Positions 1 through 57,978 of a DNA stretch of 64,000 bases are shown here, piece by piece. Below the pieces are notes generated by a model. It did no database searches, was not told where the DNA came from, and saw only the letters and a program-made list of their open reading frames with translations. Position numbers and translations under genes: made by a program. The stretch is taken from the IMG/VR virus record IMGVR_UViG_3300004151_000006, positions 1 to 64,000 of that record, one strand, 5' to 3'. Within the stretch, counting starts at the first letter, position 1; each line of letters begins with the position of its first letter. The DNA is from a virus.

Positions 1-43
1 CATCTGTAGCTACTTGAAATTGAGTACCAGATGGCGTAGCCAT
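1..43 (-). CDS. 5' end of unidentified gene continuing beyond the left edge (MATPSGTQFQVATD...)
   Basis: ATG at 43-41 on minus strand; AGGAGG (58-53) 9 nt upstream; frame open to window edge. Confidence 0.5.
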   Translation of the reverse strand, partial: MATPSGTQFQVATD

Positions 44-79
44 ATATGTGATCCTCCTAGAGGTGATGGTATCTAAAGA

Positions 80-5989: not shown

Positions 5990-6125
5990 TAATACAACAA
6001 CTGTGATATTTACAATCTGTATTACGATAATATTTGTTACCTTAGTTATCACATTTGGTATTGTGGAATATAAAAAATTAGAACTGGGTATCGTGGATAA
6101 AAGCTTAATCACTATCAAACCTTAG
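5982..6125 (+). CDS. possible small membrane protein (47 aa, VSNNTTTVIFTICITIIFVTLVITFGIVEYKK...)
   Basis: GTG overlapping the upstream stop; one clear hydrophobic helix; below the 60-aa ORF-track cutoff. Confidence 0.35.
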   Translation: MSNNTTTVIFTICITIIFVTLVITFGIVEYKKLELGIVDKSLITIKP

Positions 6126-6149
6126 AATAAAACCTTTTAATAAGCAGCT

Positions 6150-6180
6150 GGACACAGTGGCCCGTCGGGCCACTGTGTCC
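6150..6180. terminator. GC-clamped perfect hairpin (14-bp arms GGACACAGTGGCCC / GGGCCACTGTGTCC), bidirectional position
   Basis: Lies between convergent genes; part of a larger nested structure 6141-6226. Confidence 0.6.
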
Positions 6181-6222
6181 ATATGTAGAAAGAGCAAGGT
6201 CTTTTTTGCTCTCGTAGGCTGC

Positions 6223-6627
6223 TTATACCGACTGAGCCGTGTATCCGTGAGAACGAAGGAGTTCTAGGATGGTGGCTAATTGCTCAGATGGAGTGTCATA
6301 TATCCTGATATCGAATGACGTAGCTACGTCGACGACTTCCAGGGATGATGGATCGATCCACTCTCTGGCGAAAAAGCGCTTGCGTTTACTCTCGTAGTTC
6401 TCCAGAAGAGAAAGCTGCAAGAATGTCAACTTCTCAAGCACGGGCAGTTCTGGATGAAGTTTTACCACCTCTTTGTAGTAAGGGACAACATCCTCGGTGA
6501 GGGTGATTGCAGAATAGCGACAGATAGCTTCGATAGTACCAGACCAGAGCACATTATCATGCACACTGATGGACTTAAACCGAATGGTCTGTCCAATAGT
6601 TAGAGTAGATGGGTCTACTAGTGCCAT
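6223..6627 (-). CDS. hypothetical protein (134 aa), G+C-rich island gene immediately downstream of the chaperonin
   Basis: ORF with GAGGT upstream; visibly higher G+C than neighbours. Confidence 0.7.
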   Translation of the reverse strand: MALVDPSTLTIGQTIRFKSISVHDNVLWSGTIEAICRYSAITLTEDVVPYYKEVVKLHPELPVLEKLTFLQLSLLENYESKRKRFFAREWIDPSSLEVVDVATSFDIRIYDTPSEQLATILELLRSHGYTAQSV

Positions 6628-6708
6628 GAGGTCATTACCTCAAATGCACCAGCATACTCACTTGATTTGTGATACTCCGGTTGATTCATGTCTATTCGAC
6701 CTTTTGCC

Positions 6709-8640
6709 CTAACTGGCATTTCCGGATACACTCTTCATATACACACCTCCAGGCACAATGACCTTATCTGTAGCCATCAGCTTGATGATGAGTTCACCCA
6801 CCCTACTTAAGATTTCATGATAAATCAACACAGGTTGAATCACTGGATACCCATATATCAATACATTATCATCCTCTTCAAGCTCAAGATACTCCAGGTA
6901 CATATCTAAGTCGTTCACGACACCTTCAGGTGCCAGAGCGTTGATATACTCCTGGGGATGCTTCGCTGTATTGGGGACTATAATATCATTTGTGTTGTAT
7001 ATATTTTCATCATATAAAGTCTTAATTACATGATTGATAGCTAACCTGAAATTCTCATGGATAAAGAGCATATATTTCTTATCCACTTCAGACATCACAA
7101 AGTTGTCATTTTCAATCTTTTCTTTAACGATCACAAGTACATCATTCATACTGAGTACACCATTAATAAAGAAGTTATTAGTGATAGATGCCATGGTAGC
7201 GCCAATGACATCTCTTACTACATGGTGTGCAGCTACATTGTCATGTGTATTACCACCAAGCTTTAAAGTGGGAAGATGAATACATGTCATATTTTTCATA
7301 GCTAAAGTAGCAATATCATGGACTGATTGATCTTTAGCATGACTAAGATCTGCTTGTTCAGCACGTAATTTCATATCTTCCAATAAGTCATCATAAAATT
7401 TACATTTACCTGGATGTTTAAAATTTGGATGAATGGTAGCTTTAGTAGCATCGTGTTCAAAGAGTCCATAGAATTCCATGACTGATCCATAGGTACGAAT
7501 CTTATTCACCATGAATGTGTAACTATCATCTAAAGGATTTTGTCTCTCAGTCTGAATATATGGAGTAGTGGATGCAATAGCATTAAGCACTGCAAGATCT
7601 ACTGCATACTGGGTAAATGTTTTATTTTTTGTAAAATACGAAGCTAGTGCAATGGGTTCTTTACGAATGGCATTAACCTCACCAACGGTACGTATAATTT
7701 CAGCTGGGATCTGTGCAGCAGTGAGTATACACAATGATTCATTTTCAGGATAAGCTTTGATATATCCAATCAATTTGCTCGTACAAGTATCACCAGTAGC
7801 CATACCATCGGGAATAGCTAACACTCTTACATTTTCTTTTACCCATTCAGTTTGCATGACTTCATTATAAAGATTGGCAGTTTGAAAATCAATATCTACG
7901 ACAAAATCATAAGGTTCTGTATGAACAGAATAATCAGTTTCATCTTCTACTTTTGAACTAAACCAAGTTTGATGTTCCCAAGCTTCTCTGGGGATACCTT
8001 CAAAGATAGTCTTCATACATTTAGATAAGATCAAATGTCCACCAGAAGAAGACATAGATTGCATAAAAGCAATGACACCAGCCCAATATTCTTCAGATTT
8101 ACCAGGATAAAGACTCATGAGTCTTTCAATAGAATAAGATTCATTATCGATAGTCTCCAACACAATCTTTACAAATTCTTTATAGAGTTTATTTTGATCT
8201 ACTGTAGTGAGTTTGAGTGCAGCGATCTTATCTTTGTTTTGTAATGCATTCTTAAGAAAGATAGCGGCTACTAGCATGGCAGTAGTGGTGCCATCTTTAG
8301 CTCTACGATCCACTTCTCTACCAATATAAGTGATGACATTTTTAAGATATGTTTGAATGATAGATGCAAACTCTACTTTTTCCAATATAGTAATACCATC
8401 TTTAGAGAATGTGGAAGGTGAAGCCAATGCAGCATTACCACTAGCGATTACATTCCGATCTACGATCATAGAAAATTGACTATGTGGACCACAATGTGGT
8501 GTGAGTAATTGATCAATATATTCCAGGGTATCTGTAAAGATCTGTTTGTTTTCTTCAAGTTTCATATCCACAACATTTTGCATATGCAAATGTGTGTTGA
8601 TGACGTTTTTACCAACGTGACCGTTGCCTGGATTGTTCAT
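6709..8640 (-). CDS. GroEL/Hsp60-like chaperonin (643 aa)
   Basis: TPHCGPHSQFSMIV, SKDGITILEKVEF and AKDGTTTAMLVAA align in order with GroEL TLGPKGRNVV, TKDGVSVAREIE and AGDGTTTATVLA. Confidence 0.75.
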   Translation of the reverse strand: MNNPGNGHVGKNVINTHLHMQNVVDMKLEENKQIFTDTLEYIDQLLTPHCGPHSQFSMIVDRNVIASGNAALASPSTFSKDGITILEKVEFASIIQTYLKNVITYIGREVDRRAKDGTTTAMLVAAIFLKNALQNKDKIAALKLTTVDQNKLYKEFVKIVLETIDNESYSIERLMSLYPGKSEEYWAGVIAFMQSMSSSGGHLILSKCMKTIFEGIPREAWEHQTWFSSKVEDETDYSVHTEPYDFVVDIDFQTANLYNEVMQTEWVKENVRVLAIPDGMATGDTCTSKLIGYIKAYPENESLCILTAAQIPAEIIRTVGEVNAIRKEPIALASYFTKNKTFTQYAVDLAVLNAIASTTPYIQTERQNPLDDSYTFMVNKIRTYGSVMEFYGLFEHDATKATIHPNFKHPGKCKFYDDLLEDMKLRAEQADLSHAKDQSVHDIATLAMKNMTCIHLPTLKLGGNTHDNVAAHHVVRDVIGATMASITNNFFINGVLSMNDVLVIVKEKIENDNFVMSEVDKKYMLFIHENFRLAINHVIKTLYDENIYNTNDIIVPNTAKHPQEYINALAPEGVVNDLDMYLEYLELEEDDNVLIYGYPVIQPVLIYHEILSRVGELIIKLMATDKVIVPGGVYMKSVSGNAS

Positions 8641-12617: not shown

Positions 12618-12654
12618 AAAAACTACACCAGGCAGGTTTCCCCACCCGGTGTAG
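12618..12654 (-). terminator. rho-independent-type terminator
   Basis: Stem CTACACC.GG / CC.GGTGTAG followed on the minus strand by TTTTT (12622-12618); sits after the stop of 12665..13222. Confidence 0.6.
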
Positions 12655-12664
12655 TTTGATAAAC

Positions 12665-13222: not shown

Positions 13223-13398
13223 GGTAGCTCTCCTTATGTTGAGTCTCATGATGAGACAATAATGTCATTGGACCTATACGATATTGCAACCATATTCTAA
13301 CCCTTTGGACCATTTTTTAGTTTAAAAGTAATCTCAATGATCATGTCATAGTCCCAATTGTGAAAATTTACCCATACCTATGGGAGGAAATAACACAT

Positions 13399-15636
13399 AT
13401 GCGTATCGCTGTACCAGAGTCAATAGATAGAGAACCACTCTTACGTGCATATGTAGAAAACATGGTTACTTTTTTATCAAATGATTTGTCTTGGCTAGAA
13501 AAGACAGATAGAAGTGGAATTAGATTTTCACCCAATGATGATCCCAATACAAAGATACAAAAGACTATAGTTTTTAATGCAGAAATAAATGATAGAGTGA
13601 AAAACTATATACATGATGAAATCACTAAGATCGTTAAAGATCAAATAAAACGACCTAAAATATATGGTATAGATCATCCACATTATGGTGATGCTGAAGA
13701 AGTCAATGTGGATCTACTTGGTATCACCACCAAACATTTTGATAAGATTATTACCCCATCTGGATCAGTTTATATACCAGCTAAACAACATCCAAGTTTC
13801 CTTAGAGGGAAGATCACTGAAGATAAAGCAAACCGTGGTAGATTAAAGAAATTGATGTTTGATGCTAAAGCTGCGGGTGATAATGATGCTGCCAACTACT
13901 ACAATAGTGGACAGTCGTTATGTAAGATAGGTATGAATTCTTATCCCGGTGCAATGGCTTGTAGTTATAGCTTCTTATCAGATAGAGCTGGATTCAATTC
14001 TACTACATCCAGTTCACGATATCTGATCATGAATGCATATGCACAGACAGAAAGATTATTAGAAGGCAATTTCTATTTTATTAATTTAGAAGCAGTAATG
14101 AATCATATTGTTGTAGTATGTAGATCCTGTCCAGATGAGAAAACTATTATGGATATAATGTATAAATACAAACTCTATATTCCAACTTGGGATGATATTT
14201 ATGAATTCTTAAATAGTAACTATAAACAGTATTGTCCAAATAATTTACCCACCCAAATATCTGAGATGCTTATGCGTATGCCGGAATATAAACGTATTTT
14301 TCTTTATTACTTTAGCAATCTTAAACATATCCTCCAAGCCAATTCTTCTAAATTTCTTGATTGGATCCATGATTTTTATGATCATTATCTAGCAGAAAAA
14401 GCATATCCACCGGAAACATTAGAACCAGAAGGTCTATTTAAATTAGATGGTATGTTAGTCATCTTGATCTCCACAGTCTATGGTGAACTTCTTCCTTTAG
14501 GTAGTGACGGTAAGAAAGCTAAGATTTATGATACTGTAAAACTCTTTCCAGATATAGCTAAAAAGTTGTTATCCATTGGGCTTTATATGCAGGATAAATT
14601 AAATAATGAATTCATGGAATTCTTTGATCTCTTTTTGGATAATGGATGTATTATTCCAAATACTATTGATCATAAGAATATGTTTAGACATTGTGTGATT
14701 TTATCTGATACCGACTCAGTAGTCTTTACTACTAAATCTTGGTTGCAATGGTATACTGGAAAAAACATTATTGACCATAGTGCATATGAGATCAATGCTA
14801 TTATGGTGTATTGGTTATCTAAAGCATTAGAATTCATACTCAAAAATATGAGTGTTTCACGTGGTGCTGTAGGAGAAGATGCATTTATCATGAAGATGAA
14901 GAATGAATTCTTTTATCCATCTATGATCCAAAGTAGCTTAAAGAAACACTATGCGGGATTGGTGGTGGTACAAGAAGGTGTCGTCCTTCCTAAACCACAA
15001 TCAGATATCAAAGGCATCCAATTTAGAGGATCTAAATTAGCAGATGAAACAAAAGTATTTATTACTAAATATATTGATGAAACAAATGAACAAATCATCA
15101 AATGTGGAAAAGTATCAGCTAAAGAACGTATTTGGAAAGTAGTGGAATTTGAAAAGAAGGTATTATCATCAGTGAGAAAGGGTGAACTCAATTTTCTCAA
15201 CTTGATACCAGTAAAAAACGAAGATGAATATACAGATGCAGATAAATCCATTTATTTCAATTATCAATTTTGGGAATATGTGTTTGCTCCTAAGTTTGGA
15301 AACATCATGATTCCAACCAAATGTTATTCATTACCATTAGTGAATGTTAAAGATAAAGAATATTTGGAATATTTAAAGAAATGTGATAAAGAGATCTATC
15401 AGAGATTAATTGAATTCTGTGAGAAGTATCCTAAGAAAAAGATTACTCGGATACCAATCAATCCAGTGACTGATAAAATACCTGATGAGTTATTCCCCAT
15501 TGCTGCAATACGTCAGATCATCTTTGATAATGTAGCACCACTCCATTTATTTTTAGAATCATTAGGTATTGATCTTGGCAATAATCAAAAGAGTAGATTG
15601 TTGTTTTGTGAAATATATGGAAATGAATTAAACTAA
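13399..15636 (+). CDS. family B DNA polymerase, polymerase-domain-only polypeptide
   Basis: KIGMNSYPG (motif B KxxxNSxYG), ILSDTDSV (motif C DTDS) and LKKHYAG...IKGIQFRG (KKxY region) occur in order; only about 100 aa precede a degenerate motif-A-like VDLLGIT, so there is no exonuclease domain. Confidence 0.7.
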   Translation: MRIAVPESIDREPLLRAYVENMVTFLSNDLSWLEKTDRSGIRFSPNDDPNTKIQKTIVFNAEINDRVKNYIHDEITKIVKDQIKRPKIYGIDHPHYGDAEEVNVDLLGITTKHFDKIITPSGSVYIPAKQHPSFLRGKITEDKANRGRLKKLMFDAKAAGDNDAANYYNSGQSLCKIGMNSYPGAMACSYSFLSDRAGFNSTTSSSRYLIMNAYAQTERLLEGNFYFINLEAVMNHIVVVCRSCPDEKTIMDIMYKYKLYIPTWDDIYEFLNSNYKQYCPNNLPTQISEMLMRMPEYKRIFLYYFSNLKHILQANSSKFLDWIHDFYDHYLAEKAYPPETLEPEGLFKLDGMLVILISTVYGELLPLGSDGKKAKIYDTVKLFPDIAKKLLSIGLYMQDKLNNEFMEFFDLFLDNGCIIPNTIDHKNMFRHCVILSDTDSVVFTTKSWLQWYTGKNIIDHSAYEINAIMVYWLSKALEFILKNMSVSRGAVGEDAFIMKMKNEFFYPSMIQSSLKKHYAGLVVVQEGVVLPKPQSDIKGIQFRGSKLADETKVFITKYIDETNEQIIKCGKVSAKERIWKVVEFEKKVLSSVRKGELNFLNLIPVKNEDEYTDADKSIYFNYQFWEYVFAPKFGNIMIPTKCYSLPLVNVKDKEYLEYLKKCDKEIYQRLIEFCEKYPKKKITRIPINPVTDKIPDELFPIAAIRQIIFDNVAPLHLFLESLGIDLGNNQKSRLLFCEIYGNELN

Positions 15637-15642
15637 CAATAT

Positions 15643-15678
15643 GGATGATAGACATGCCCTGGGGCATGTCTATCATCC
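15643..15678 (+). terminator. GC-clamped perfect hairpin (17-nt arms GGATGATAGACATGCCC / GGGCATGTCTATCATCC)
   Basis: Begins 7 nt after the polymerase stop. Confidence 0.55.
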
Positions 15679-15722
15679 GATTATCAAATATATATTACAT
15701 CATTGAAATAAAGGAGGTAACT

Positions 15723-15995
15723 ATGTCATTACATGTTGATTTCTTCAGTGATCATGAAATGGACTATTGTCCTAAATGTGAATGGCTGTGTCCACACTGC
15801 AATGAAAAAAATAGTCTTACCTTTACATCAAGACCTTTAAAAGAAATCATAGAAGGTATAGTACTGGAATATCCAGATATGGTCAGTTGTGATGGGTGTA
15901 ATACACGATTTAAAATGAAGGATTTATTCGATTTAAATTATACTACAGAATCCATACACAGTGAACCTACCTTTGGGTTAGATAAATTCAAATAG
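15723..15995 (+). CDS. small zinc-ribbon protein (90 aa; CPKC...CPHC, CDGC)
   Basis: AGGAGG 6 nt upstream of ATG 15723; the 15645 start would read through the hairpin. Confidence 0.75.
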   Translation: MSLHVDFFSDHEMDYCPKCEWLCPHCNEKNSLTFTSRPLKEIIEGIVLEYPDMVSCDGCNTRFKMKDLFDLNYTTESIHSEPTFGLDKFK

Positions 15996-16004
15996 GAGGA
16001 CCAC

Positions 16005-16493
16005 ATGTCATATGAAGGACATATTCAACATTGGTGTAAGAATGGGCATTATTGGGAAGTTGGATATGGTTATGGTAATCTAAGTGAAGAAGAAATCAAA
16101 GCTGATCATACTTGTCTTGAATGTTCGGAATCTTCAATTTTTGAAAACAGTGTAGACGACACTAACTGTGATGCATATGGGGAAATACCCCCACAAATTA
16201 TGTTTAATGATAAGAATGGTCATGCGGTATATGTTATTCCAAAAAATTATACTGTGGGACATTTAATTGATACCAAAGAACCCATTGCTTATTACTTTTA
16301 CAAAGATGGGATACACTTTTCACATCGAATACATCAATGTGTGGTTATTCATGAAAAGATACATTATTTGCCTGAAAAATGTAAGGAGATCCTTTATCCA
16401 AAACAATTCAATTTGATCAAGTTTGGATTTCTCATTGATTTTGATAATGATCGTTTAGTGAATCCGTATCAATCTCCCACGGAGGAAATCTAA
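16005..16493 (+). CDS. hypothetical Cys/His-rich protein (162 aa)
   Basis: AGGAGG upstream; its stop lies 1 nt before the next ATG (tight coupling). Confidence 0.8.
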   Translation: MSYEGHIQHWCKNGHYWEVGYGYGNLSEEEIKADHTCLECSESSIFENSVDDTNCDAYGEIPPQIMFNDKNGHAVYVIPKNYTVGHLIDTKEPIAYYFYKDGIHFSHRIHQCVVIHEKIHYLPEKCKEILYPKQFNLIKFGFLIDFDNDRLVNPYQSPTEEI

Positions 16494-16494
16494 C

Positions 16495-16704
16495 ATGCCC
16501 GAATCCATGGAAATGATTATCAACCGTAAGGCGGATACCACCGAGTCCCTCGCACATCTGGTGCGAAGTATCACGGTCATCCCCCTGGCCAGGGCGTATC
16601 TCAGAAAGAATCCAGATACTCTGATGAAATCACCTAGATTCCTGACTACCATATCTGAGAGTTTTGCACAACACCATCGATTGTATCGTCGTTTGGGAGA
16701 ATAA
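16495..16704 (+). CDS. small protein (69 aa), candidate antitoxin/partner of the downstream Doc
   Basis: GGAGG 9 nt upstream; TAA-C-ATG junction with doc; roughly half G+C versus about a third in doc; no recognisable Phd motif. Confidence 0.5.
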   Translation: MPESMEMIINRKADTTESLAHLVRSITVIPLARAYLRKNPDTLMKSPRFLTTISESFAQHHRLYRRLGE

Positions 16705-16705
16705 C

Positions 16706-17137
16706 ATGGGAATGAATACCAGATATCTTACTGTAGAAGAAGTATTATTTATACATGAAGCATCCATTATCTTATTTGGTGGTACCACTGGTGTGCGAGA
16801 TATAAATTTATTAAAATCTACTGTTGGTGCAGCTAAAAATATTGGTGGGTATACTGATGATTTATTCTCGATAGCTACCAGATATATGGAAGGGATATTG
16901 ATCAATCACCCATTCATTGATGGTAATAAGCGTACCGCATTTTGTGCTGTGGATACGTTTTTCAGGTTAAATGGGATATATTTAAAAGTACCTTATGATG
17001 TTGAAAACACAAATAGCATTAACTATAAAAAAGATGATGAACTCTATCAGTATTTTGTAGTTTGTTGGATCCCATGTGATAATAAATTGAGAAGCAAACA
17101 AATCTATAAAGATTTGAAGTATCTTTACAAATCTTAA
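16706..17137 (+). CDS. doc: Doc (death-on-curing) family Fic-fold toxin
   Basis: HPFIDGNKRTAF matches the Doc variant of the Fic motif (HxFx[DN][AG]NKR); the N-terminal LTVEEVLFIHEASIILFGG pattern resembles P1 Doc; GGAG precedes ATG 16706. Confidence 0.85.
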   Translation: MGMNTRYLTVEEVLFIHEASIILFGGTTGVRDINLLKSTVGAAKNIGGYTDDLFSIATRYMEGILINHPFIDGNKRTAFCAVDTFFRLNGIYLKVPYDVENTNSINYKKDDELYQYFVVCWIPCDNKLRSKQIYKDLKYLYKS

Positions 17138-17157
17138 ACCACAAAAAGGACTTTACA

Positions 17158-17355
17158 ATGCCTGGTATCACCAAACACTACAAGAAACAAATTCGAGATC
17201 TTAAACCTTGCATGATTTATTCTGCAAGGAAAGGTACCCGTGGTCCTAGTGGGAAAGAGAATGGTCGCCAGTTGAAAAAGATCTGGAAACACTATTTCAT
17301 CTGGAAACTTAGTAGCCAGAGACTACTGAGCGCTAAACATTTACAAATGAATTAA
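17158..17355 (+). CDS. small, very basic protein (65 aa)
   Basis: ORF directly after doc; weak AAGGA upstream; Lys/Arg-rich. Confidence 0.45.
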   Translation: MPGITKHYKKQIRDLKPCMIYSARKGTRGPSGKENGRQLKKIWKHYFIWKLSSQRLLSAKHLQMN

Positions 17356-17389
17356 CCCCAACGCCAACGATGGATGTGGAGTAAATCTC

Positions 17390-17860
17390 ATGAAACAATT
17401 GGATTCCAAAAACCAACTGTTGAAAGGTATTACCTGGTTGGCAATTCTCACCCTCGAAAAACTGGGACACATCACTGTCATTCATACTGGGGGCTTCGAT
17501 CTGTATGCCAAGTGTAACTGTGAATGGAATGAAGCTCGAATCATCGATCGGCGCGGTAATAAAGTATTGATGGTCGATCCATTCTCCGTACAAAAACAAT
17601 TTGGCATCACCAAATCGTTTGGTATTAGCTCATACGGATACGTCGTCAAAGACGACCACCATTGTTTGGCATTTTCCATATACAGTGATCCCCGGTATAC
17701 TACCCTCAAAAACAACGTGGGGGATTATCCAGAGTTCGTTAACACCATTTTGGCCCTTCCCGACTTTCCGACCAACATCCTCTACATATCCAATATCTGC
17801 TTTCATGAAGATTACCATGGGGCGAACTACTGGGAACGGGACTACACCATCCTTTCCTGA
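17390..17860 (+). CDS. hypothetical protein (156 aa), G+C-rich island gene
   Basis: GGAG upstream; followed by hairpin 17872-17897; the competing frames here look like G+C artefacts. Confidence 0.65.
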   Translation: MKQLDSKNQLLKGITWLAILTLEKLGHITVIHTGGFDLYAKCNCEWNEARIIDRRGNKVLMVDPFSVQKQFGITKSFGISSYGYVVKDDHHCLAFSIYSDPRYTTLKNNVGDYPEFVNTILALPDFPTNILYISNICFHEDYHGANYWERDYTILS

Positions 17861-17871
17861 TGACATGACTT

Positions 17872-17897
17872 GGAGCGGGGGATATGTCCCCCGCTCC
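17872..17897 (+). terminator. GC-clamped hairpin (GGAGCGGGGGA / TCCCCCGCTCC)
   Basis: 11-bp perfect stem 12 nt after the stop of 17390..17860. Confidence 0.55.
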
Positions 17898-17941
17898 ACA
17901 TTCGATTACAGGTATTATTCTTTTTTTTTATAAAAGCACTT

Positions 17942-17950
17942 ATCTTATAG
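17942..17950 (+). promoter_or_regulatory. promoter-like motif ATCTTATAG (exact)
   Basis: Exact copy 30 nt upstream of ATG 17980, after terminator and T-run. Confidence 0.45.
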
Positions 17951-17979
17951 AAATTTATATCACAAGGAGGGAATATGTT

Positions 17980-18522
17980 ATGAAAAAATTCTTACTTACT
18001 CTCATGTTGTTGGGTATTTTTGTTACTCCCGGATACACCGTATCTTCTGATGAAACATGTGCACATATCCCCAATGAATATTTAGAACTTAATCAATATT
18101 ACAAATTAGTATTTTACCGTACAATGGATATCCAGTATAAACTTAAAAATGTGGGAATAGAAGACTCTAATTTAAATAGACTCAAATATCTTAATATTGA
18201 AAAACTGCTTCCCAGTACAGTGGTGACTATCTTAGGAATAGAATGCCATGAAGGATTTGACATTTCACAAGCACAAATATTTAAAGCTTCATTTAGTGGT
18301 GCAAACTTTACTTCCTATAATGATATCAATGATTTAAATTGGTCTAAAATCAAAACATATTGTGGTATTGATCGATTCAAGATGATGTTATCTGTTGGCA
18401 TATTTCGTTATATGGATGAAGTATCTAAAGAGATTTTTGCAGAGACTTGTGGTTTATATAAAAAATATCCCGATAAATTTGAAACTATTGTATTTCCTGA
18501 AAAGATATATTGTTCGAATTGA
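17980..18522 (+). CDS. secreted protein (180 aa) with signal peptide MKKFLLTLMLLGIFVTPGYT
   Basis: AAGGAGGG upstream of ATG 17980; the longer 17884 start overlaps the hairpin and promoter motif. Confidence 0.8.
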   Translation: MKKFLLTLMLLGIFVTPGYTVSSDETCAHIPNEYLELNQYYKLVFYRTMDIQYKLKNVGIEDSNLNRLKYLNIEKLLPSTVVTILGIECHEGFDISQAQIFKASFSGANFTSYNDINDLNWSKIKTYCGIDRFKMMLSVGIFRYMDEVSKEIFAETCGLYKKYPDKFETIVFPEKIYCSN

Positions 18523-18530
18523 TGATGTTG

Positions 18531-18562
18531 GGCATACCCTAGCCAAAAGGCTAGGGTATGCC
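18531..18562 (+). terminator. GC-clamped perfect hairpin (GGCATACCCTAGCC AAAA GGCTAGGGTATGCC)
   Basis: 14-bp stem 9 nt after the stop. Confidence 0.55.
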
Positions 18563-18635
18563 ATTCAATTAATTTAAAAATATATATTATTAAATTGATA
18601 TAATCCTTTAAACTATTTAATCTGAGGAGTCTATT

Positions 18636-19091
18636 ATGTTTCGTTGGTTCCCCACTTCCTCCAAAAGAAATCAATGTATCATCAAATCAAAACTGCTCCT
18701 ACTTGGTTCTCCTTATTTTTACAAAGATGAAGCTGTGTATATGTTTGGTAAAAATGAAATGGCTAGATTTAATTATCTCTTTAAACTTATGATGAGTATC
18801 CACAATGATATCATCAATCATTTGCAAGCACAATGTAAACACCAAGTATCTGATAGTTATGCCAATCAATTGAAACTCCTTGGTGCATCTATGTCAAGAC
18901 TCATGCGTCATGTGGAAGTATTACATGAAGGTCTTGAAAATCTCACCAGAGAACAGTTTCAAAAGTATGTGAGTGACATCAATGAGACTTTCAATATCTT
19001 GGAATCCTTAGATGAACAAACCATAGAACATTTGGATATCCCATCTAAGAAAATCGAAACATTAGGTGAATCCCAAGATTTTCCTCAATAG
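18636..19091 (+). CDS. hypothetical protein (151 aa)
   Basis: GAGGAG 6 nt upstream of ATG. Confidence 0.8.
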   Translation: MFRWFPTSSKRNQCIIKSKLLLLGSPYFYKDEAVYMFGKNEMARFNYLFKLMMSIHNDIINHLQAQCKHQVSDSYANQLKLLGASMSRLMRHVEVLHEGLENLTREQFQKYVSDINETFNILESLDEQTIEHLDIPSKKIETLGESQDFPQ

Positions 19092-19099
19092 GAGTATTT

Positions 19100-19849
19100 G
19101 TGGAACACATTGATCCAATCCAAAGTGATCTCTTTGACCTTTTACCTAATCTTTTCATTGAAAATAATAAACTCTGTGGTATGATAGATATTGATTGTAC
19201 AGAAGTAAATGATTCCCCAGCATTAGCTGCATGTTATCACCATGTGGATGAAGATGAGCATCCTATCTTTCCAGCTTATCTTGAAAACATCTTAAATGTT
19301 AAAATGTTGTATTATCGTGTGATGGCACAGATCCACGATACACAAAATACACAGATCCCAAATATCACCACTTTTCATTTAGTAAAAAATGATGAACATC
19401 CAGATACATGTATATCTTCCATAGAGAAACAATTATATCTTGGTATGTTTAGATTCTATAATGAAATCTATGGATTAGATGGATGTGATATCATTGATAA
19501 TAAAGATAAATTAAACCTAGTATTTAATGATGCTTCATATGAGAGTATCCTTCAAACATTTATCTTATTTCAATTAGAATATAGTGAAAATATATTCTTT
19601 CCCATTCCTTTTAAATGTATTGGTTTTTTAAAAGATAAATATATTGCTACACCATTTTATCCAGAACATGAATTTATTGAAAATGGTAATTATTTCAATT
19701 CAAAATTTATTAGTATAAATGAATCTACATTATCAGAGATGTATGATAAACCTGATAGTCCTTTTCAACTTTATCTATATCACGGTAATCAGTTGATTGA
19801 AAATACTAAAGATACTTCTAAAAAGTATTTTGGTGAATATGGATTTTAA
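19100..19849 (+). CDS. hypothetical protein (249 aa)
   Basis: GTG start with AGGAG 5 nt upstream. Confidence 0.8.
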   Translation: MEHIDPIQSDLFDLLPNLFIENNKLCGMIDIDCTEVNDSPALAACYHHVDEDEHPIFPAYLENILNVKMLYYRVMAQIHDTQNTQIPNITTFHLVKNDEHPDTCISSIEKQLYLGMFRFYNEIYGLDGCDIIDNKDKLNLVFNDASYESILQTFILFQLEYSENIFFPIPFKCIGFLKDKYIATPFYPEHEFIENGNYFNSKFISINESTLSEMYDKPDSPFQLYLYHGNQLIENTKDTSKKYFGEYGF

Positions 19850-19893
19850 ATATAAGTTTTATATCATTTCAATAATTAGTCTATTGATTAATA

Positions 19894-19902
19894 TAGCTAT
19901 AG
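19894..19902 (+). promoter_or_regulatory. promoter-like motif variant TAGCTATAG
   Basis: 37 nt upstream of ATG 19939 in an intergenic gap. Confidence 0.3.
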
Positions 19903-19938
19903 TTTATTTTGAGACCAAACACTCAAAGGAGAAGCCAC

Positions 19939-20292
19939 ATGTCAAACGATCATCTGACTAACATCCCCGGTCTTGAAAAAGAAACTCCCCGGAACATTGA
20001 TCAGGACACTCCGGAGACTGAGACGTATGAGGATCTCAATGTCGTCAAGTTTGGTGAAGTCCTTATCAATGGGATAAAGACCAGACAAAGTCTGGTCTTT
20101 TGTCCTGAATGTGGGGATCCCCGTATCGAGATGGAAGCTATTGCTATCTTCCGTCTCACCAATCAACATGTGTGGTCTTTGGTGCCCATCACCCAAGAAG
20201 AACTGATCGAAGTGCTCAATCGGGATGACAATCAGTGCACCTGTACTGAATGTGGTTGGACTGGTACATTTGGTGAATTGGGACACTTTTAA
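19939..20292 (+). CDS. zinc-ribbon protein (117 aa; CPECG...CTECG), G+C-rich island gene
   Basis: AAAGGAGAAG upstream of ATG 19939; the antisense 19942..20316 ORF is judged a G+C artefact. Confidence 0.7.
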   Translation: MSNDHLTNIPGLEKETPRNIDQDTPETETYEDLNVVKFGEVLINGIKTRQSLVFCPECGDPRIEMEAIAIFRLTNQHVWSLVPITQEELIEVLNRDDNQCTCTECGWTGTFGELGHF

Positions 20293-20309
20293 ACTAGGAT
20301 TGTGTTCAC

Positions 20310-20591
20310 ATGCCACGCATACTTATTGTAGATGGTATTCCACACTGGGATGGTACACACATTGCTAAAATGATTGTTGATTTTATTGCAGCTTTAAATA
20401 CATATCCAGTCATTACACCAATGGAACAAAAATCTATGTTTCAAATAGATATGGAATGGCAATATAAAATGCAACAAGTTGATCATAGTTTTAAGTGGTT
20501 ACCTAATAGAACACCACATCTTAAACCTAAAACTAAGTTTACTATGATAAAAGCCAACCATAGAAATAGACATCATTTGTTTGGAAAATAA
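20310..20591 (+). CDS. hypothetical protein (93 aa)
   Basis: ORF between the previous gene and terminator 20602; weak RBS. Confidence 0.65.
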   Translation: MPRILIVDGIPHWDGTHIAKMIVDFIAALNTYPVITPMEQKSMFQIDMEWQYKMQQVDHSFKWLPNRTPHLKPKTKFTMIKANHRNRHHLFGK

Positions 20592-22547: not shown

Positions 22548-22562
22548 ACTCCTTTGATACTT

Positions 22563-22581
22563 TAGTATCTATAAGATGTAA
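22563..22581 (-). promoter_or_regulatory. promoter-like motif ATCTTATAG (exact) within a 19-nt direct repeat (copy 1)
   Basis: Plus strand TAGTATCTATAAGATGTAA; its 13-nt core CTATAAGATGTAA is identical to 23618-23630; 22 nt upstream of ATG 22547. Confidence 0.45.
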
Positions 22582-22610
22582 AAAATAAAAAATACAAATA
22601 GTCAAATAAA

Positions 22611-22646
22611 CACCTACCCCACTCCAAGAGAGGAGTGGGGTAGGTG
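22611..22646 (-). terminator. rho-independent-type terminator (15-bp stem CACCTACCCCACTCC / GGAGTGGGGTAGGTG)
   Basis: Followed on the minus strand by a long T-rich tract (plus-strand A-rich 22578-22610); sits after the stop of the G+C-rich gene. Confidence 0.75.
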
Positions 22647-22685
22647 ATACATCCGAAGATGATTGACCTTGGCTTGCAGGTCTGG

Positions 22686-23537
22686 TTAGACCGGCAGATC
22701 CAGGATGGCATCCAGATCGGCGGCGCCGAGAGTGGCACAGACGACCTTGTGATCGTACATGATGGCATTAGCAGCCTGGACGTTGTCGTAGTCGGTGACG
22801 TCGGCGTTGGTCTCAACAGTGGACAGGCGAGCGATCTCGACCTTGGTCATCTTGCCGTAGGTGGCGCCATCCAGGACATCGTCCAGGGTATTGGCATTGT
22901 CGCCACGGAACTTGAAGTGATCCTGCAGCTGCAGGGTCCAGTTGACATCCAGCGTGCCGATCTCGGAGACCTTGTTCCAGGACATGGGCAGAGCACCGGA
23001 TCCATCCGGGTCATACCAGACATAGATCGCAGCGCCGGCGGTGACAGAGGTATCACCGGGAGTTTTCTCGCCGCCGCCGGTGATGGTGCCGTTGGTGGCA
23101 TCGACGACCAGGATCAGGGTCGAATGGAAGGAAGCATCCAGAGCCTGCAGGTCACCATAGGTCTCGACCACCTTGACGGTGTTGAGGATGAAGCCGGGCA
23201 GCTGATCATGACGGATCTTGCCGGTGGCGTCGGAGAGGATCATGGACTCGGGGATGTTCTGGCCGACCTTCAGAGAATAGGTCAGCCCGCCGTCGGCGGT
23301 GGTAAAGAGCTTGTCGAGCAGGACGCGGTATTCGGTAGGCAACGAAGCTTCGATGGCCCAGGGCAGCTGGGCGAAGGTCTTGGTGCCGTCGCCGACTTTG
23401 ATCCGACCAAGCGAGCTGTCACGGACGGCCAGACCAGCAGGGATGTTTTTGGTGTTATTGACCCAATTGGCCGAGGTATCGCTCGGCATCGGGGCCAACA
23501 GATTGGCGGTGTTGCGTTTGGTAGCGGAACCGGGCAT
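22686..23537 (-). CDS. tail-fibre-like protein (283 aa), strongly G+C-rich
   Basis: The N-terminal ANWVNNTKNIPAGLAVRDSSLGRIKVGDGTKTFAQLPW resembles the conserved fibre/Mtd-N-type motif (..GE..D....iKiGDG.t.w..LPy); GGAG upstream; hand count 34/60 G+C at 22861-22920. Confidence 0.7.
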   Translation of the reverse strand: MPGSATKRNTANLLAPMPSDTSANWVNNTKNIPAGLAVRDSSLGRIKVGDGTKTFAQLPWAIEASLPTEYRVLLDKLFTTADGGLTYSLKVGQNIPESMILSDATGKIRHDQLPGFILNTVKVVETYGDLQALDASFHSTLILVVDATNGTITGGGEKTPGDTSVTAGAAIYVWYDPDGSGALPMSWNKVSEIGTLDVNWTLQLQDHFKFRGDNANTLDDVLDGATYGKMTKVEIARLSTVETNADVTDYDNVQAANAIMYDHKVVCATLGAADLDAILDLPV

Positions 23538-23611
23538 CGGATATTCTCCTTAATGCGTGCTTGTTGAATCAAATTTAGGAAAACCAAATACACTTCAGTA
23601 TAAAGGTCTCC

Positions 23612-23630
23612 TAGTGCCTATAAGATGTAA
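23612..23630 (-). promoter_or_regulatory. promoter-like motif ATCTTATAG (exact) within a 19-nt direct repeat (copy 2)
   Basis: Plus strand TAGTGCCTATAAGATGTAA; 81 nt upstream of ATG 23537. Confidence 0.45.
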
Positions 23631-23652
23631 GCTTGGATCAACTGAAGCTTAC
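23627..23652 (-). terminator. hairpin GTAAGCTT(10 nt)AAGCTTAC
   Basis: 8-bp stem 7 nt after the stop of 23659..23862; abuts the promoter-like motif; no U-tract. Confidence 0.35.
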
Positions 23653-42195: not shown

Positions 42196-42271
42196 TGGGG
42201 TATAGCTCAGTTGGTAGAGCCATCGGCTCATAACCGAAAGGTCACGTGTTCGACCCACGTTGCCCCAACCA
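42196..42271 (+). tRNA. tRNA with CAT anticodon (Met, or Ile2 if lysidine-modified), CCA encoded
   Basis: Hand-folded cloverleaf: acceptor TGGGGTA/TGCCCCA, D arm GCTC-AGTTGGTA-GAGC, anticodon loop CTCATAA, T arm ACGTG-TTCGACC-CACGT; 76 nt. Confidence 0.9.
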
Positions 42272-42275
42272 TTGT

Positions 42276-42352
42276 GGGACTGTAGCTCAGTTGGATAGAG
42301 CATCTGCCTTCTAAGCAGACAGTCAGAGGTTCGACTCCTCTCAGTCTCACCA
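42276..42352 (+). tRNA. tRNA-Arg (TCT anticodon, reads AGA), CCA encoded
   Basis: Acceptor GGGACTG/CAGTCTC, D arm GCTC-AGTTGGATA-GAGC, anticodon stem TCTGC/GCAGA with loop CTTCTAA, T arm AGAGG-TTCGACT-CCTCT; 77 nt. Confidence 0.9.
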
Positions 42353-42363
42353 CCAAAATTTTC

Positions 42364-42435
42364 AAGGACATAGCTTAGTCGTAGAGCCCAGGTCTCACCA
42401 GCCTGGAGAGTTTGGTTCAATTCCAAATGTCCTTG
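42364..42435 (+). tRNA. atypical tRNA-like gene; anticodon CAC (Val) if folded canonically
   Basis: Acceptor AAGGACA/TGTCCTT (A1-U72), D arm GCTT-AGTCGTA-GAGC (no GG), anticodon stem CAGGT/GCCTG with loop CTCACCA (C at position 37), T arm TTTGG-TTCAATT-CCAAA, G73, no encoded CCA. Confidence 0.55.
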
Positions 42436-42651
42436 GCCAAGATTATCTCTCTTATATCAGGAGAGTTGTGTAAGACATTCTGTGCATCACCATGAAGGGA
42501 CATGTGGCTGTACAGGGACATAACTTCATCGTACCTCAATATCCATCAAAAGTGATACCCATGCGATGATGCGGGAGGAACACGTAAAACACCCTCCATC
42601 CAAATACCTCGACAGTTGACAGGTGGTAACCGCTGAACAATGTCCCATAAA
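42436..42651 (+). ncRNA. candidate structured trailer of the tRNA transcription unit
   Basis: About 215 nt without a credible ORF, lying between the last tRNA and the terminator; local helices such as CTCTC/GAGAG 42447-42465 and GGAGG/CCTCC near 42565-42597. Confidence 0.25.
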
Positions 42652-54038: not shown

Positions 54039-56828
54039 GTGGCAGATAGCGCCAAAATAGTACCCAGCGCATTTACACAATTAGCTGGAGTAATCGATGA
54101 AAAACCCCGTGTCACAAATATTAATAATAAAGAATTAAACAATACTCCAGTATCGAAATATAGTCATAATGAAATTCTCAGTGTAATCAGAAATACTTAT
54201 GTTAGTGATAAAGAAGTACCAAATCCGAATTTAGCCAATGCCGAAGGACTCATATCATACTTTCTACCGATACATGAACAAATTGGACAAGTACTTCTTG
54301 ATACTGAGAAAATGAAGAAGTTAGCACCTGAAATCAATCAAGCTAAACTCATTCGTATCTCTTCTATCATGTCACCCAATGATATGCAAGATGGTAAATT
54401 TATTTTTGACATAGACCAAATACCTGGACTCACAGAAGATGCTCGTAAAAAGATCACAGACCTGCTTAGTGAATTTTTTAATGAGACTGAAAAGTTAGCT
54501 AAGAAAGCAGCCAAATGGTCTGGTGATGCGCTCTATGGTCCAGGAGCTAGTCCAGTATTGTTACTCCCATCAAGTTATCAAAAAGCTATGCATGAAGATG
54601 GTAAACATATTATCGGTAATCGAACTGATGATAAAGTGATTGGGAATACTTCATTATCTGTTGAATCAATCAAATTTACAAAACAAGAATATATGAAGAA
54701 ATTAGAAAATACTTTTATCTACACTGATAACACTGTTGGTATTGAACATTGGGCACTTACTATTCAGAAAGATACTGATCATAAATCAAAATGGGTAGAT
54801 GACATCTATGATAATTTGCCCACCACTTATTTATTAGATAAAGAAAAAGATGAACTTCGTGTTGGTATTGAACAAATCACTGTAAATTTTATCAAACAAA
54901 TTGAAGCAGGTGATATTATTAAATTAACTGAAAATCCAGAGATCATCAAATTTGCTACTGAATATAGAAAAAATACAAGTAAACAATTGGAAAATAAATT
55001 ACAAAATCATTTTAACATGCAAATGTCATATAAACAAGAAGATCTAATTAGTTTAAATAAATATATTAATACTAAAGAAGTAGATGACACACATCCACTC
55101 ATGTTGGATATCCCAGCTGAATCTGTGATACCAATCTGTGTACCGAGTAATGAACGTGAACATCTCGGATATTTTATATTACTTGACGAATCAGGTCAAC
55201 CAATTAAGGCTGATGAAAGCAGAATCTCTAATTCTAATGGTTGGGGTGGTGGGCCACAAGCTGCCTTTCAAGCTATGTTCGGTAGTAGTGAACGTAATAT
55301 ATTTCAATCTCCCAATTTCAAAAACTATGAAGAGATGACAGTACGTAAAATCTTTAATGGCCTGTTAGATGAATATCTTAAATCCAAGCTACGTGGTATT
55401 GGACATGAAGATGTCACTATTGATAAAACCAATGCTATCATGACCACCATGCTGTATAGGTTACTTGAACATAAACGTACTCGTATTTTATTTATCCCTT
55501 CATTTTTGATGTCATATATTTGTTTTGATTATCGAAAAAATGGTACAGGTAAATCTTTATTAGAAGATATTCATTATCTTCTTTCATTACGTGTGACCTT
55601 TCAAGTAGCTGCACTTATGGGTATGGCTAAAGATGCAATCAATCATCGTACTTTAAATCTCACTTTTGCAAATCAAGAAACCAATCCTCGAGCACTCATG
55701 GATCAATTGGTCAATATGTTTGTTGAAAAAGAACGTATGCCATTTAGTTTAGATCCCACTGAAGTATCTCGAGGTATAGCTAGAAATGCTATCTCTGTAG
55801 CACCAAAAAACTTACCAGGATTAGATGAGTTTGGTATTGAACGTGTCAATGATGCTGGTGGTGGTGGCAATAAACCAGATACTGAATTGCTAGATACTAT
55901 CACTAATATGTTAGTCACGGCATTGGGTGTACCTTACAGTGCACTCAATCAATTGGCTGAACAAGAATATGCTAAATCTATCGTTACTACTAATTTATTT
56001 TATTCCAAACAAATCAGACAAGATCAGGATATCCTTTGCCTATTTGCTGAGCATCTTGTTAAACAATATATAAAATTTTCTCCTAAATTACAAACTAAAA
56101 TTCAAGCTATTATCAAAGAGTTTTTAAAAGATCCAGATGATACATCTGAAGAAGCTGAAAAGAAAAATGAAAAACGTGGTACAGTACCTTCTACCCAACA
56201 TGCTCCTGAACTAGAAAATGATGTGATCACCAAACTCAACATGATTACAAAGCTAGTCATTGATAGTATCAGACTTAAATTACCCACACCAAATATTGCT
56301 CAAGATAAAGCACAATATGCTGAAATTACAGAATATATAAATGCACTTGATCAGTTCCTTAATGTCAAATATGCCAATGAATTAGTACCTGCTGATAACA
56401 TGGAGGCTACTACTGCACTCAATGTAATCAAAGCTACTATTAAGAGTATTGCAATTGATGATTTCTTTAGTAAGGTTGGTGTAGTCAATACCATGGATCT
56501 TCCTTCCATCGAAGAATTTATTGCTAAACATGATGCCACTGATGTACTACAGATATTGATGAACTTTAATAAAGGACTCAAAGATGTAGCTACTAAATTT
56601 GGGAGTGCTGATCCAATGGGCATGGGTGGTAGCGATATGAGTATGATGGGAGATGACATGATGGGTGGTATGGGTGATGAAGGTATGATGGGAGATGAAC
56701 CACCTATGGATATGAATATGGATACTGGACCAGAGATGATGCCAGATGAAGTGCCCACATCCACTAAAGAAGAAAATAAAAACATGGATGGTACTTTTAA
56801 TATTCCTGAAGATAATAAGCCAGTGTAG
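54039..56828 (+). CDS. large hypothetical structural protein (929 aa; portal is one possibility) with Met/Gly/Asp-rich C-terminal tail
   Basis: GTG 54039 with AGGAGG 7 nt upstream (the 53967 start would overlap the divergent gene); function not established. Confidence 0.8.
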   Translation: MADSAKIVPSAFTQLAGVIDEKPRVTNINNKELNNTPVSKYSHNEILSVIRNTYVSDKEVPNPNLANAEGLISYFLPIHEQIGQVLLDTEKMKKLAPEINQAKLIRISSIMSPNDMQDGKFIFDIDQIPGLTEDARKKITDLLSEFFNETEKLAKKAAKWSGDALYGPGASPVLLLPSSYQKAMHEDGKHIIGNRTDDKVIGNTSLSVESIKFTKQEYMKKLENTFIYTDNTVGIEHWALTIQKDTDHKSKWVDDIYDNLPTTYLLDKEKDELRVGIEQITVNFIKQIEAGDIIKLTENPEIIKFATEYRKNTSKQLENKLQNHFNMQMSYKQEDLISLNKYINTKEVDDTHPLMLDIPAESVIPICVPSNEREHLGYFILLDESGQPIKADESRISNSNGWGGGPQAAFQAMFGSSERNIFQSPNFKNYEEMTVRKIFNGLLDEYLKSKLRGIGHEDVTIDKTNAIMTTMLYRLLEHKRTRILFIPSFLMSYICFDYRKNGTGKSLLEDIHYLLSLRVTFQVAALMGMAKDAINHRTLNLTFANQETNPRALMDQLVNMFVEKERMPFSLDPTEVSRGIARNAISVAPKNLPGLDEFGIERVNDAGGGGNKPDTELLDTITNMLVTALGVPYSALNQLAEQEYAKSIVTTNLFYSKQIRQDQDILCLFAEHLVKQYIKFSPKLQTKIQAIIKEFLKDPDDTSEEAEKKNEKRGTVPSTQHAPELENDVITKLNMITKLVIDSIRLKLPTPNIAQDKAQYAEITEYINALDQFLNVKYANELVPADNMEATTALNVIKATIKSIAIDDFFSKVGVVNTMDLPSIEEFIAKHDATDVLQILMNFNKGLKDVATKFGSADPMGMGGSDMSMMGDDMMGGMGDEGMMGDEPPMDMNMDTGPEMMPDEVPTSTKEENKNMDGTFNIPEDNKPV

Positions 56829-56837
56829 TATGATCTC

Positions 56838-56867
56838 CTGGAGAGGGGCCCTATGGCCCCTCTCCAG
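56838..56867. terminator. GC-clamped hairpin (CTGGAGAGGGGCC CTAT GGCCCCTCTCCAG)
   Basis: 13-bp perfect stem between convergent genes. Confidence 0.6.
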
Positions 56868-56892
56868 ATAGATCAATTAGATGTGATGTTGG

Positions 56893-57975
56893 TTAAACGA
56901 GAGTTCCACCAGTGGCTTCAGTCGTATCCGTAGCCACGGTGGTAGTACCACGATAAGACTCACCATCAGCAGCAGCCGGGGCACTCTCAGTCAAGAGCTG
57001 ACCAGGTCCCTGGTAGTACTGATTGGTGGGATTGATTCCCCGATAGCCCTGGAAGGCCGTAGCATTGCCAGGAGCAGACACGGTATCTGGATTGTATCCA
57101 CCACCGTTGACTTCATCGGAGATGCCGTAGTTCTTGATCACCGGCTGAATGGCTTCATCGAAGCCAGTCTTGCCGAGGATACCAGGCAGGGCCAGGTTGT
57201 AGTTGACCTGATGCATACGCAGCATGACAGCCACCTGGTAGGCCAGCTCACGAATGTTTTCGTTGTGCTGGACGATGCCGGTGTACTGGATAGTGCGTTC
57301 CTGCAAGTTAGTCGTGTTGATGACACGCTGCAACTGCAGGGGACCAATATCCGTCGGGAAGACGTTCGTGTAGAACGCCGCATCGATGATGCGATCCGGA
57401 AGCATGGTGGCATCGTACTGGATCGCCAGGAAGCTCATTGACCAAGCTGTCATGACCCAGGGCGGAATCTCACCGATGTCGGTGTTCATCGAGAGGGCCG
57501 AAGCATTGGTATCCGGATGTTGCATATCGAAGATCCACCGACGGTGCAGGTTCCAGCAGAGGTTGCCGGTCACTTCGGTGTATTCGATAGACGGTGAGAT
57601 CTGACCGCGAGTGCTGCGTGTCGGGATCTTGAGTGTCTGGCCATCATGGCCAATGGGAGTTTCAGCAGTCTCAACTGCATAGTTAAACTCAATACCAGTC
57701 ACAGACTTAGCATGAGTCTCGACCATGGACTTGAGCATCATCTGGAGATCAGGGATCCCATCCCACATGGAAGGGGTATGAAGCACCACAATGACTGCCG
57801 GAGTGAATGCCAACGGAGTGGCCGCATCCAACTTGGTATACTTTACACCAGTCCCAAGTTGACCACCCGTGAACAGGTTACCAACAGCTCCACGCTGTCC
57901 GATGCCAAGTCCGGTGATGTTACCGATCAGAGCATCCGTCATGGAGTTAGGCGCAGCAATAGGTTTACCGTTCAT
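56893..57975 (-). CDS. possible tail tube protein (360 aa), G+C-rich
   Basis: GGAGG 8 nt upstream; lies 3 nt downstream of the sheath-like gene; the assignment rests on position only. Confidence 0.7.
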   Translation of the reverse strand: MNGKPIAAPNSMTDALIGNITGLGIGQRGAVGNLFTGGQLGTGVKYTKLDAATPLAFTPAVIVVLHTPSMWDGIPDLQMMLKSMVETHAKSVTGIEFNYAVETAETPIGHDGQTLKIPTRSTRGQISPSIEYTEVTGNLCWNLHRRWIFDMQHPDTNASALSMNTDIGEIPPWVMTAWSMSFLAIQYDATMLPDRIIDAAFYTNVFPTDIGPLQLQRVINTTNLQERTIQYTGIVQHNENIRELAYQVAVMLRMHQVNYNLALPGILGKTGFDEAIQPVIKNYGISDEVNGGGYNPDTVSAPGNATAFQGYRGINPTNQYYQGPGQLLTESAPAAADGESYRGTTTVATDTTEATGGTLV

Positions 57976-57978
57976 AGA

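Follow-up and report, generated by a model that had tools for sequence, protein, structure and literature searches.

A probable Doc toxin-antitoxin module with a rare antitoxin variant in the DNA-polymerase operon of a lytic-looking, phiKZ-type jumbo phage

Plasmid prophages and bacterial chromosomes are the classical settings of Doc modules. In the Phd-Doc pair of P1, the C-terminus of the antitoxin becomes helical when bound to Doc, which it blocks, and free Doc phosphorylates EF-Tu at Thr382 and halts translation (PMC4803016). EF-Tu is also phosphorylated by P1 Doc during lytic infection with P1vir (PMC13645617). Other Doc toxins are paired with antitoxins that have varied N-terminal modules, as in the AbrB/MazE-Doc, Xre-Doc and YhfG-Fic/Doc systems (PMC2701414, PMC1626090). 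Here we analyzed the first 64 kb (the window, to which all coordinates refer) of the IMG/VR virus record IMGVR_UViG_3300004151_000006, 286,688 bp in all, and within it two adjoining open reading frames (ORFs), a 69-codon ORF at 16495-16704 and a doc-like ORF at 16706-17137. Both lie on the plus strand, as do the other features of the locus described below. We conclude that these ORFs probably constitute a conventional two-protein type II Doc toxin-antitoxin (TA) module, an accessory cassette that a singleton jumbo phage of the phiKZ type carries within its DNA-polymerase operon.

The downstream ORF (143 aa, or 141 aa from an alternative ATG at 16712) passed the cut-offs of both family models for which these are given, scoring 45.1 bits against Pfam Fic PF02661 (cut-off 24) and 47.7 bits against NCBIfam TIGR01550 DOC_P1 (cut-off 38.65). 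It also matched phrog_577, 'Doc-like toxin', at 3.5e-23 and the P1 Doc chains in PDB at 1.6e-9; PADLOC gave weak Fic-domain matches only. The initial annotation of this DNA had noted a Doc-specific Fic motif in the ORF, and the motif is indeed present: HPFIDGNKRTAF is encoded from 16907, and HPFIDGNKR, His68 to Arg76, spans 16907-16933. The Doc-type motif, H-x-F-x-D-(A/G)-N-K-R, is distinguished by the Lys before Arg, a position at which AMPylating Fic proteins carry Gly. In an alignment with 101 relatives, each of the nine positions of the phage motif holds the residue present in 97-100% of them, and the protein also retains the C-terminal Trp and the GG and RD positions. An AlphaFold2 model built from 16 sequences was confident over residues 1-95 (mean pLDDT of 74-95 for the 10-residue blocks from 1 to 90, and 60 for block 91-100), and its top five PDB matches were all P1 Doc chains (TM 0.58-0.69, rmsd 1.5-2.1 Å over 93-96 columns). 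The phage protein thus shares its toxin family, fold and Doc-type Fic motif with the toxin of P1 Phd-Doc (PDB 3K33, 3DD7, 3KH2), to which it is 32% identical over 60% of its length. We therefore regard it as a member of the Doc family with an intact catalytic signature and a divergent periphery, the activity of which is predicted from its sequence. The composition of doc is that of the phage itself (GC 0.312, third-position GC [GC3] 0.257).

The arrangement of the pair also recalls P1. In both cases a small antitoxin gene lies directly upstream of the toxin gene and is coupled to it, and both pairs are phage-borne. The two phage genes are joined by TAA (16702-16704), a single C and the ATG of doc at 16706, the 1-nt junction that the initial annotation had likened to those of TA pairs. 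A Shine-Dalgarno-like GGGAG at 16695-16699, within the end of the upstream gene, precedes the doc ATG by 6 nt, and a GGAGG at 16481-16485 precedes the ATG at 16495 by 9 nt, both by direct reading of the sequence. The upstream product is similar in size to P1 Phd (69 aa vs. 73 aa), and its C-terminal segment is the predicted toxin-binding part. However, it is not a Phd/YefM protein: Phd/YefM PF02604 matched neither the 69-aa protein nor anything else in the genome, and P1 Phd received negative scores from the profiles of both the 69-aa family and the ribbon-helix-helix (RHH) type of antitoxin described below. The statement that no Phd-like motif can be recognized in the upstream ORF therefore stands.

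The case for this ORF as a gene draws on a homologue of its product and on the strong ribosome-binding site before it. When 1.84 billion representative proteins were searched exhaustively with HMMER, one true homologue was returned, P0045 (70 aa), which is encoded on a Logan contig of 32,857 bp and is 45% identical to the 69-aa protein over its full length, initial Met and final Glu included. Long matches (238-2,411 aa, with 3-13 matched stretches each) were rejected as artefacts, the two sequences inspected, P0043 and P0047, being translated tandem repeats. From the conservation in P0045 the 69-codon ORF is judged to be a real protein gene, although no match to its product was found in Pfam, PHROG, NCBIfam or PADLOC; an ESM Atlas search gave no usable match. 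The best homologue of the phage Doc, P0002 (54% identity), is encoded on a 33,026-bp ENA contig whose size is near that of the contig encoding P0045; this is only suggestive.

The affinity of the 69-aa protein became apparent from the genes that accompany the closest relatives of its toxin. The comparison set consisted of the 80 Doc loci in species genomes that are closest to the phage gene (L003-L082), mostly of freshwater and soil Proteobacteria and Actinobacteria, in which Doc identity was 35-55%. In 78 of the 80 a co-directional ORF ends at the doc start, and nearly all of these upstream ORFs terminate in ...PR.HV...F..S...FD.LYR.LAK or in a closely similar sequence. The bacterial partners span 59-86 aa, a range that includes the 69 aa of the phage protein in the same position directly upstream, and the N-terminal half of these proteins is a ribbon-helix-helix domain (Pfam RHH_1, RHH_3 and Antitox_RHH; NCBIfam RelB-like). 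The RHH-Doc module occurs on viral contigs of 38 kb and 77 kb as well. These bacterial and viral modules (L003-L082, L086 and L087) have the closest Doc relatives of the phage toxin (43-55% identity), an antitoxin gene in the same position and an antitoxin with a homologous C-terminus. The phage protein itself ends in SPRFL..I..SF..HHRLYRRLGE, and it shares with the RHH-Doc antitoxins the PR..., S.. and LY..L elements and an acidic or basic last residue; its tail reads ...FAQHHRLYRRLGE, compared to ...EFDSLYRELAK in the common RHH-Doc type. A separate observation concerns two of the bacterial loci, L006 and L010, which lie 18 kb apart on the same Arenicellales chromosome. They are two copies of an RHH-Doc module with nearly identical antitoxins, whose end, ...NEELGKLLAR, represents a tail subtype separate from ...FDSLYRELAK.

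Profile comparisons support the similarity of the tails. When the two-sequence phage family was compared by hhalign with a profile of 39 of the Doc-linked upstream ORFs, the last 27 columns aligned with an E value of 3.8e-5, and a laxer setting extended the alignment to 46 columns at 3.4e-5. When all 7,057 six-frame segments of the phage genome were scored with the same antitoxin profile, the 69-aa ORF came out on top (E 0.07, vs. 3.2 for the runner-up); as a single target the ORF gave an E value of 1.8e-5, and none of 2,000 shuffled sequences reached its score (12.4 bits vs. a shuffle maximum of 8.1). In the reverse search, with the phage-family profile, 14 of 25 weak matches were ORFs upstream of Doc, compared to an expected share of 1.8% (156 of all 8,490 segments of the Doc loci), although the 14 count as a single match because all come from one family. 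Residues ~30-69 are thus homologous to the toxin-binding tail of the RHH antitoxins found beside the closest Doc genes, with the predicted Doc-binding part at residues 43-69 (16621-16701), where the phage end ...LYRRLGE aligns with the bacterial ...LYRELAK. Given this homology, the neutralizing part is likely cognate to the Doc clade. The initial annotation had envisaged a novel neutralizer, an idea that the C-terminal ~40 residues do not bear out.

The N-terminal part of the antitoxin is a different matter. RHH-Doc antitoxins have an RHH domain there, whereas the phage protein is shorter by approximately 9 residues, matches no RHH family in Pfam or NCBIfam, and is encoded by a G+C-rich stretch. 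A forced global hhalign to the RHH antitoxins placed a 9-residue gap in the RHH region and lowered the score from 27.5 to 23.5. Nor did Pfam or NCBIfam detect any of the N-terminal domains of the hybrid Doc modules (AbrB/MazE-Doc, Xre-Doc, YhfG-Fic/Doc), although the phage pair fits the modular pattern that these modules exemplify. The antitoxin is best described, from sequence comparison, as a rare variant in which the predicted toxin-binding tail of the clade is attached to an N-terminal part that is probably different.

Base composition marks the same division. As the initial annotation had counted by hand for parts of the two genes, the 69-codon ORF is richer in G+C than doc (0.476 vs. 0.312), and the genome as a whole is at 0.349. 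However, the anomaly is limited to codons 12-32 (16528-16590; GC 0.62, GC3 0.76), and codons 33-69 are near phage-typical (GC 0.42, GC3 0.35, with a phage GC3 reference of 0.28 +/- 0.12 from ORFs of at least 200 aa). Since the anomaly coincides with the N-terminal part, the mosaic join probably falls within the antitoxin gene rather than at its border with the toxin gene, so that the proposal of a pair assembled from different sources has to be relocated to a break between the N-terminal third of the antitoxin and its tail. P0045 shares both halves with the 69-aa protein, and the join would therefore predate the split of the two. A G+C content of 0.476 or higher is reached by 5.8% of the 210-bp windows of the genome, which contains 60 G+C-rich islands (G+C of at least 0.44 in 200 bp) totalling 33 kb, so the antitoxin island, though unusual, is one of many in a phage of mosaic composition. 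Examples of others in the window are 6101-6800, 17451-17950, 19951-20350, 22551-23650 and 56601-58900; in addition, three clustered tRNA genes (Met-CAT, Arg-TCT and Val-CAC) lie within a G+C-rich island at 42196-42439.

The carrier of the pair is a phage that the initial annotation had described as a lytic-looking jumbo type, and our analysis agrees. The product of ORF 13360-15636 matches Pfam PF20286, 'divergent family B DNA polymerase' (1.3e-112), and is of the phiKZ type, with only ~27% identity to polymerases of known jumbo phages. Integrase, resolvase, ParA, ParB and Phd families had no match in the whole 286.7-kb genome. With integrase, resolvase, ParA and ParB not found, a plasmid prophage was rejected as a reading of the record. 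Megablast of deposited phage records recovered neither a close relative of the phage nor one of the three- to four-gene arrangement around the pair, and IMG/VR queried with Doc, the 69-aa protein and the polymerase likewise gave no close relative and no shared arrangement; a metagenome scan returned nothing but the phage itself, in a copy of 1,528 bp. We accordingly consider the phage, from its gene content and searches, to be a singleton of the phiKZ type with a lytic appearance.

In its setting the pair differs from that of P1. P1 is a plasmid prophage in which the pair has its own Pphd promoter and operator, whereas the pair studied here sits inside a polymerase operon of a phage without maintenance genes. 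A co-directional run of plus-strand ORFs from 13360 to 20591 contains the Doc pair, and the 69-codon ORF is coupled to the preceding gene by a junction identical to that before doc, TAA (16491-16493), C and ATG (16495), as had been described. A scan of 15916-17673 for the sigma-70 consensus, which phage or host promoters may not follow, found no promoter-like site on the plus strand, and no convincing terminator was found between 15916 and 17673. No autoregulated promoter and operator of the kind associated with type II TA modules was thus seen in the sigma-70 consensus scan, and the pair is embedded in the operon at 13360-20591. Because the scan revealed no promoter and because of the coupling to the preceding gene, the pair is probably expressed with the polymerase operon. 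We also considered whether the TAACATG that flanks the 69-codon ORF on both sides might be an insertion scar, but rejected this, as the heptamer occurs 46 times on both strands, which is not above the expectation from composition.

By analogy with P1, phage Doc would be blocked while the tail of its antitoxin is bound to it as a helix, and once free it would phosphorylate EF-Tu and stop translation. The N-terminal third of the antitoxin would be a different or degenerate module, in which the RHH domain was either swapped out or shortened by about 9 residues, and an N-terminus altered in this way would suit genes that rely on transcription of a phage operon and not on autoregulation. The most likely role would be a version of 'death on curing' in a lytic setting, with the antitoxin silencing Doc for as long as the phage genes are expressed. 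If expression were cut by host immunity or by a competing phage, the toxin would outlast the antitoxin and the cell would be frozen. Two roles are plausible, the arrest of cells in which phage expression has been interrupted and the neutralization of host Doc toxins.

Several points weigh against a conventional module. The similarity of the tails is short, and HMMER over the whole genome is by itself borderline (E 0.07, above). The N-terminal ~30-32 residues of the 69-aa protein align with nothing, and the AlphaFold2 model of the antitoxin is all-helical but of low confidence (pLDDT 63), with the predicted tail modelled, again at low confidence, as a helix broken at residue 61. The link between the P0045-type subfamily of antitoxins and Doc comes from one locus. 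On the side of the toxin, the last 48 residues (96-143) are modelled poorly (pLDDT ~40), and the phage Doc differs from its clade at 8 of the 31 positions that are conserved at 85% or more (A39T, P43A, Y50T, A58T, A59R, L60Y, L64I and L86F, mostly in helices 2-3). Given these changes and the poorly modelled C-terminus, the activity of Doc may be reduced or altered. Finally, both the instability of the antitoxin and the role proposed for the pair are ones that we infer.

Given a strictly lytic jumbo phage of the phiKZ type, the pair could instead be a counter-defence device and not an addiction system of the plasmid kind, which we consider unlikely. If it were such a device, Doc might act as a 'poison pill' that outlives its antitoxin and arrests cells whose immunity has destroyed the phage genome after early expression, or the antitoxin, without a DNA-binding domain, might double as a decoy that neutralizes Doc-type abortive-infection toxins of the host; the G+C-rich N-terminal module would then add a new function, such as timing, localization or protease targeting. 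A separate decoy explanation holds that the antitoxin is the selected function, neutralizing host abortive-infection Doc toxins that are freed when the phage shuts off host expression, with the phage doc a passenger or regulator. The tail does resemble Doc-paired antitoxins of freshwater Proteobacteria and Actinobacteria, plausible settings for a host, and the protein has no recognizable DNA-binding domain. Moreover, jumbo phages carry antitoxin-like anti-defence proteins, e.g. the DarG-like protein of PhiKZ (PMC13309987). However, known decoys are mostly orphan antitoxins, whereas here doc has been kept at full length, with its catalytic motif intact and its start tightly coupled to the antitoxin gene, and the divergence of both the phage tail and the phage Doc from the clade consensus suggests a private, co-evolved pair instead of a broad decoy. 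We hold this explanation, too, to be unlikely. It is quite unlikely, in our estimate, that the locus is a decaying cassette, captured from a host or a temperate element, in which doc is drifting to inactivity and nothing is left of a present function. The altered conserved positions and poorly modelled C-terminal third of Doc would suit such decay, as would the lack of a related phage with the module in our searches. However, neither frame is interrupted, no position of the motif is lost, and the two ribosome-binding sites and the two coupling junctions have been kept; the composition of doc, which is the phage's own, suggests long residence without loss, and identical proteins recur on 3-6 contigs each (three for the 69-aa protein, five for Doc and six for the basic ORF described below).

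The reading favored in the initial annotation, of Doc as a host shut-off effector with a new kind of neutralizer unrelated to known antitoxins and a pair of mixed origin, has some observations in its favor: no family library names the 69-aa protein, its homologue stands alone among the 1.84 billion proteins searched, and its G+C-rich ORF adjoins an A+T-rich doc. It nevertheless appears very unlikely, because residues ~30-69 are homologous to the Doc-linked RHH tail and because the compositional break falls within the antitoxin gene, whose tail-coding part is near phage-typical. The most skeptical explanation, that the 69-codon ORF is no gene and its G+C-rich island a non-coding element (a structured RNA or the scar of a mobile element) that is open by chance, we consider extremely improbable. 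Long chance ORFs do arise in G+C-rich DNA of an A+T-rich genome, and the opposite strand here also has an open ORF of 65 aa. The codon score of the 69-codon ORF against the phage's own genome is weak as well and nearly tied with that of a minus-strand frame (0.077 vs. 0.071), but a weak score is expected from its atypical composition. The full-length homologue with its conserved ends and the homology of the tail both argue against this explanation. A structured RNA or tRNA was likewise rejected, as Rfam and ARAGORN searches of the island found no RNA family and no tRNA, and its folding energy was no better than that of shuffles (z +1.6 and -0.9).

The genes that flank the probable TA module offer less. 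The gene immediately upstream (16005-16493), which lies outside the TA pair proper, is an open ORF that encodes a Cys/His-rich protein of 162 aa with 6 Cys and 11 His and no match in Pfam, PHROG, NCBIfam or PADLOC. This protein has one full-length homologue at 75% identity, which points to an unsampled sister phage, and its N-terminal ~60 aa form a module common to many metagenomic proteins of 90-175 aa. A 110-kb viral contig in IMG/VR has two paralogues (L106 and L107), separated by 12 kb and with no Doc nearby, so the multi-gene arrangement is not known to be conserved. Downstream of doc, at 17158-17355, is the ORF that had been singled out as a very basic mini-protein of 65 aa. The frame is open and its composition as described (11 Lys, 5 Arg, 1 Asp and 1 Glu), but its status as a gene is unconfirmed and finds no support beyond the open frame: no homologue except itself was recovered, Pfam, PHROG, NCBIfam and PADLOC gave no match, and the own-genome codon signal is weak. 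The next ORF (17390-17860, 156 aa) is again G+C-rich, with a GC3 of 0.54 and no family match. Its coding strand is uncertain, since the codon table of the phage favors the minus strand (0.127 vs. 0.009 for the annotated frame).

Other features of the record were noted in passing. Just past the polymerase stop (15636) is a perfect palindrome at 15643-15678, with a 16-bp stem and a 4-nt loop. Because it overlaps the nominal ATG (15645) of a zinc-ribbon ORF, the true start of that ORF may be further downstream. Another stem, of 17 bp, lies at 12620-12657. The 'inverted terminal repeat' on which the label of a complete genome is based (window 1-60 and the far end of the record) is just 60 exact bases and is more suggestive of an artefact of assembly than of a biological telomere.

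Judged by homology and gene content, the locus combines a probable Doc TA module with a rare antitoxin variant and an unusual carrier, a lytic-looking jumbo phage. Among the matches listed (40 of 50) from a search of 50,697 deposited phage records at E <= 1e-5, no Doc homologue was in a record of 200 kb or more. In practical terms the gain is modest, since the mechanism is expected to be as in P1 Phd-Doc and the idea of a new kind of neutralizer does not hold. The antitoxin may nonetheless serve as a compact example of modular evolution, with a conserved tail on a replaced or shortened N-terminus and the join visible in base composition. Because the Doc pair is intact and coupled, and lies in the replication operon of a jumbo phage without lysogeny or partition genes, it would also provide a clean case for asking what use a TA pair is to a lytic virus.

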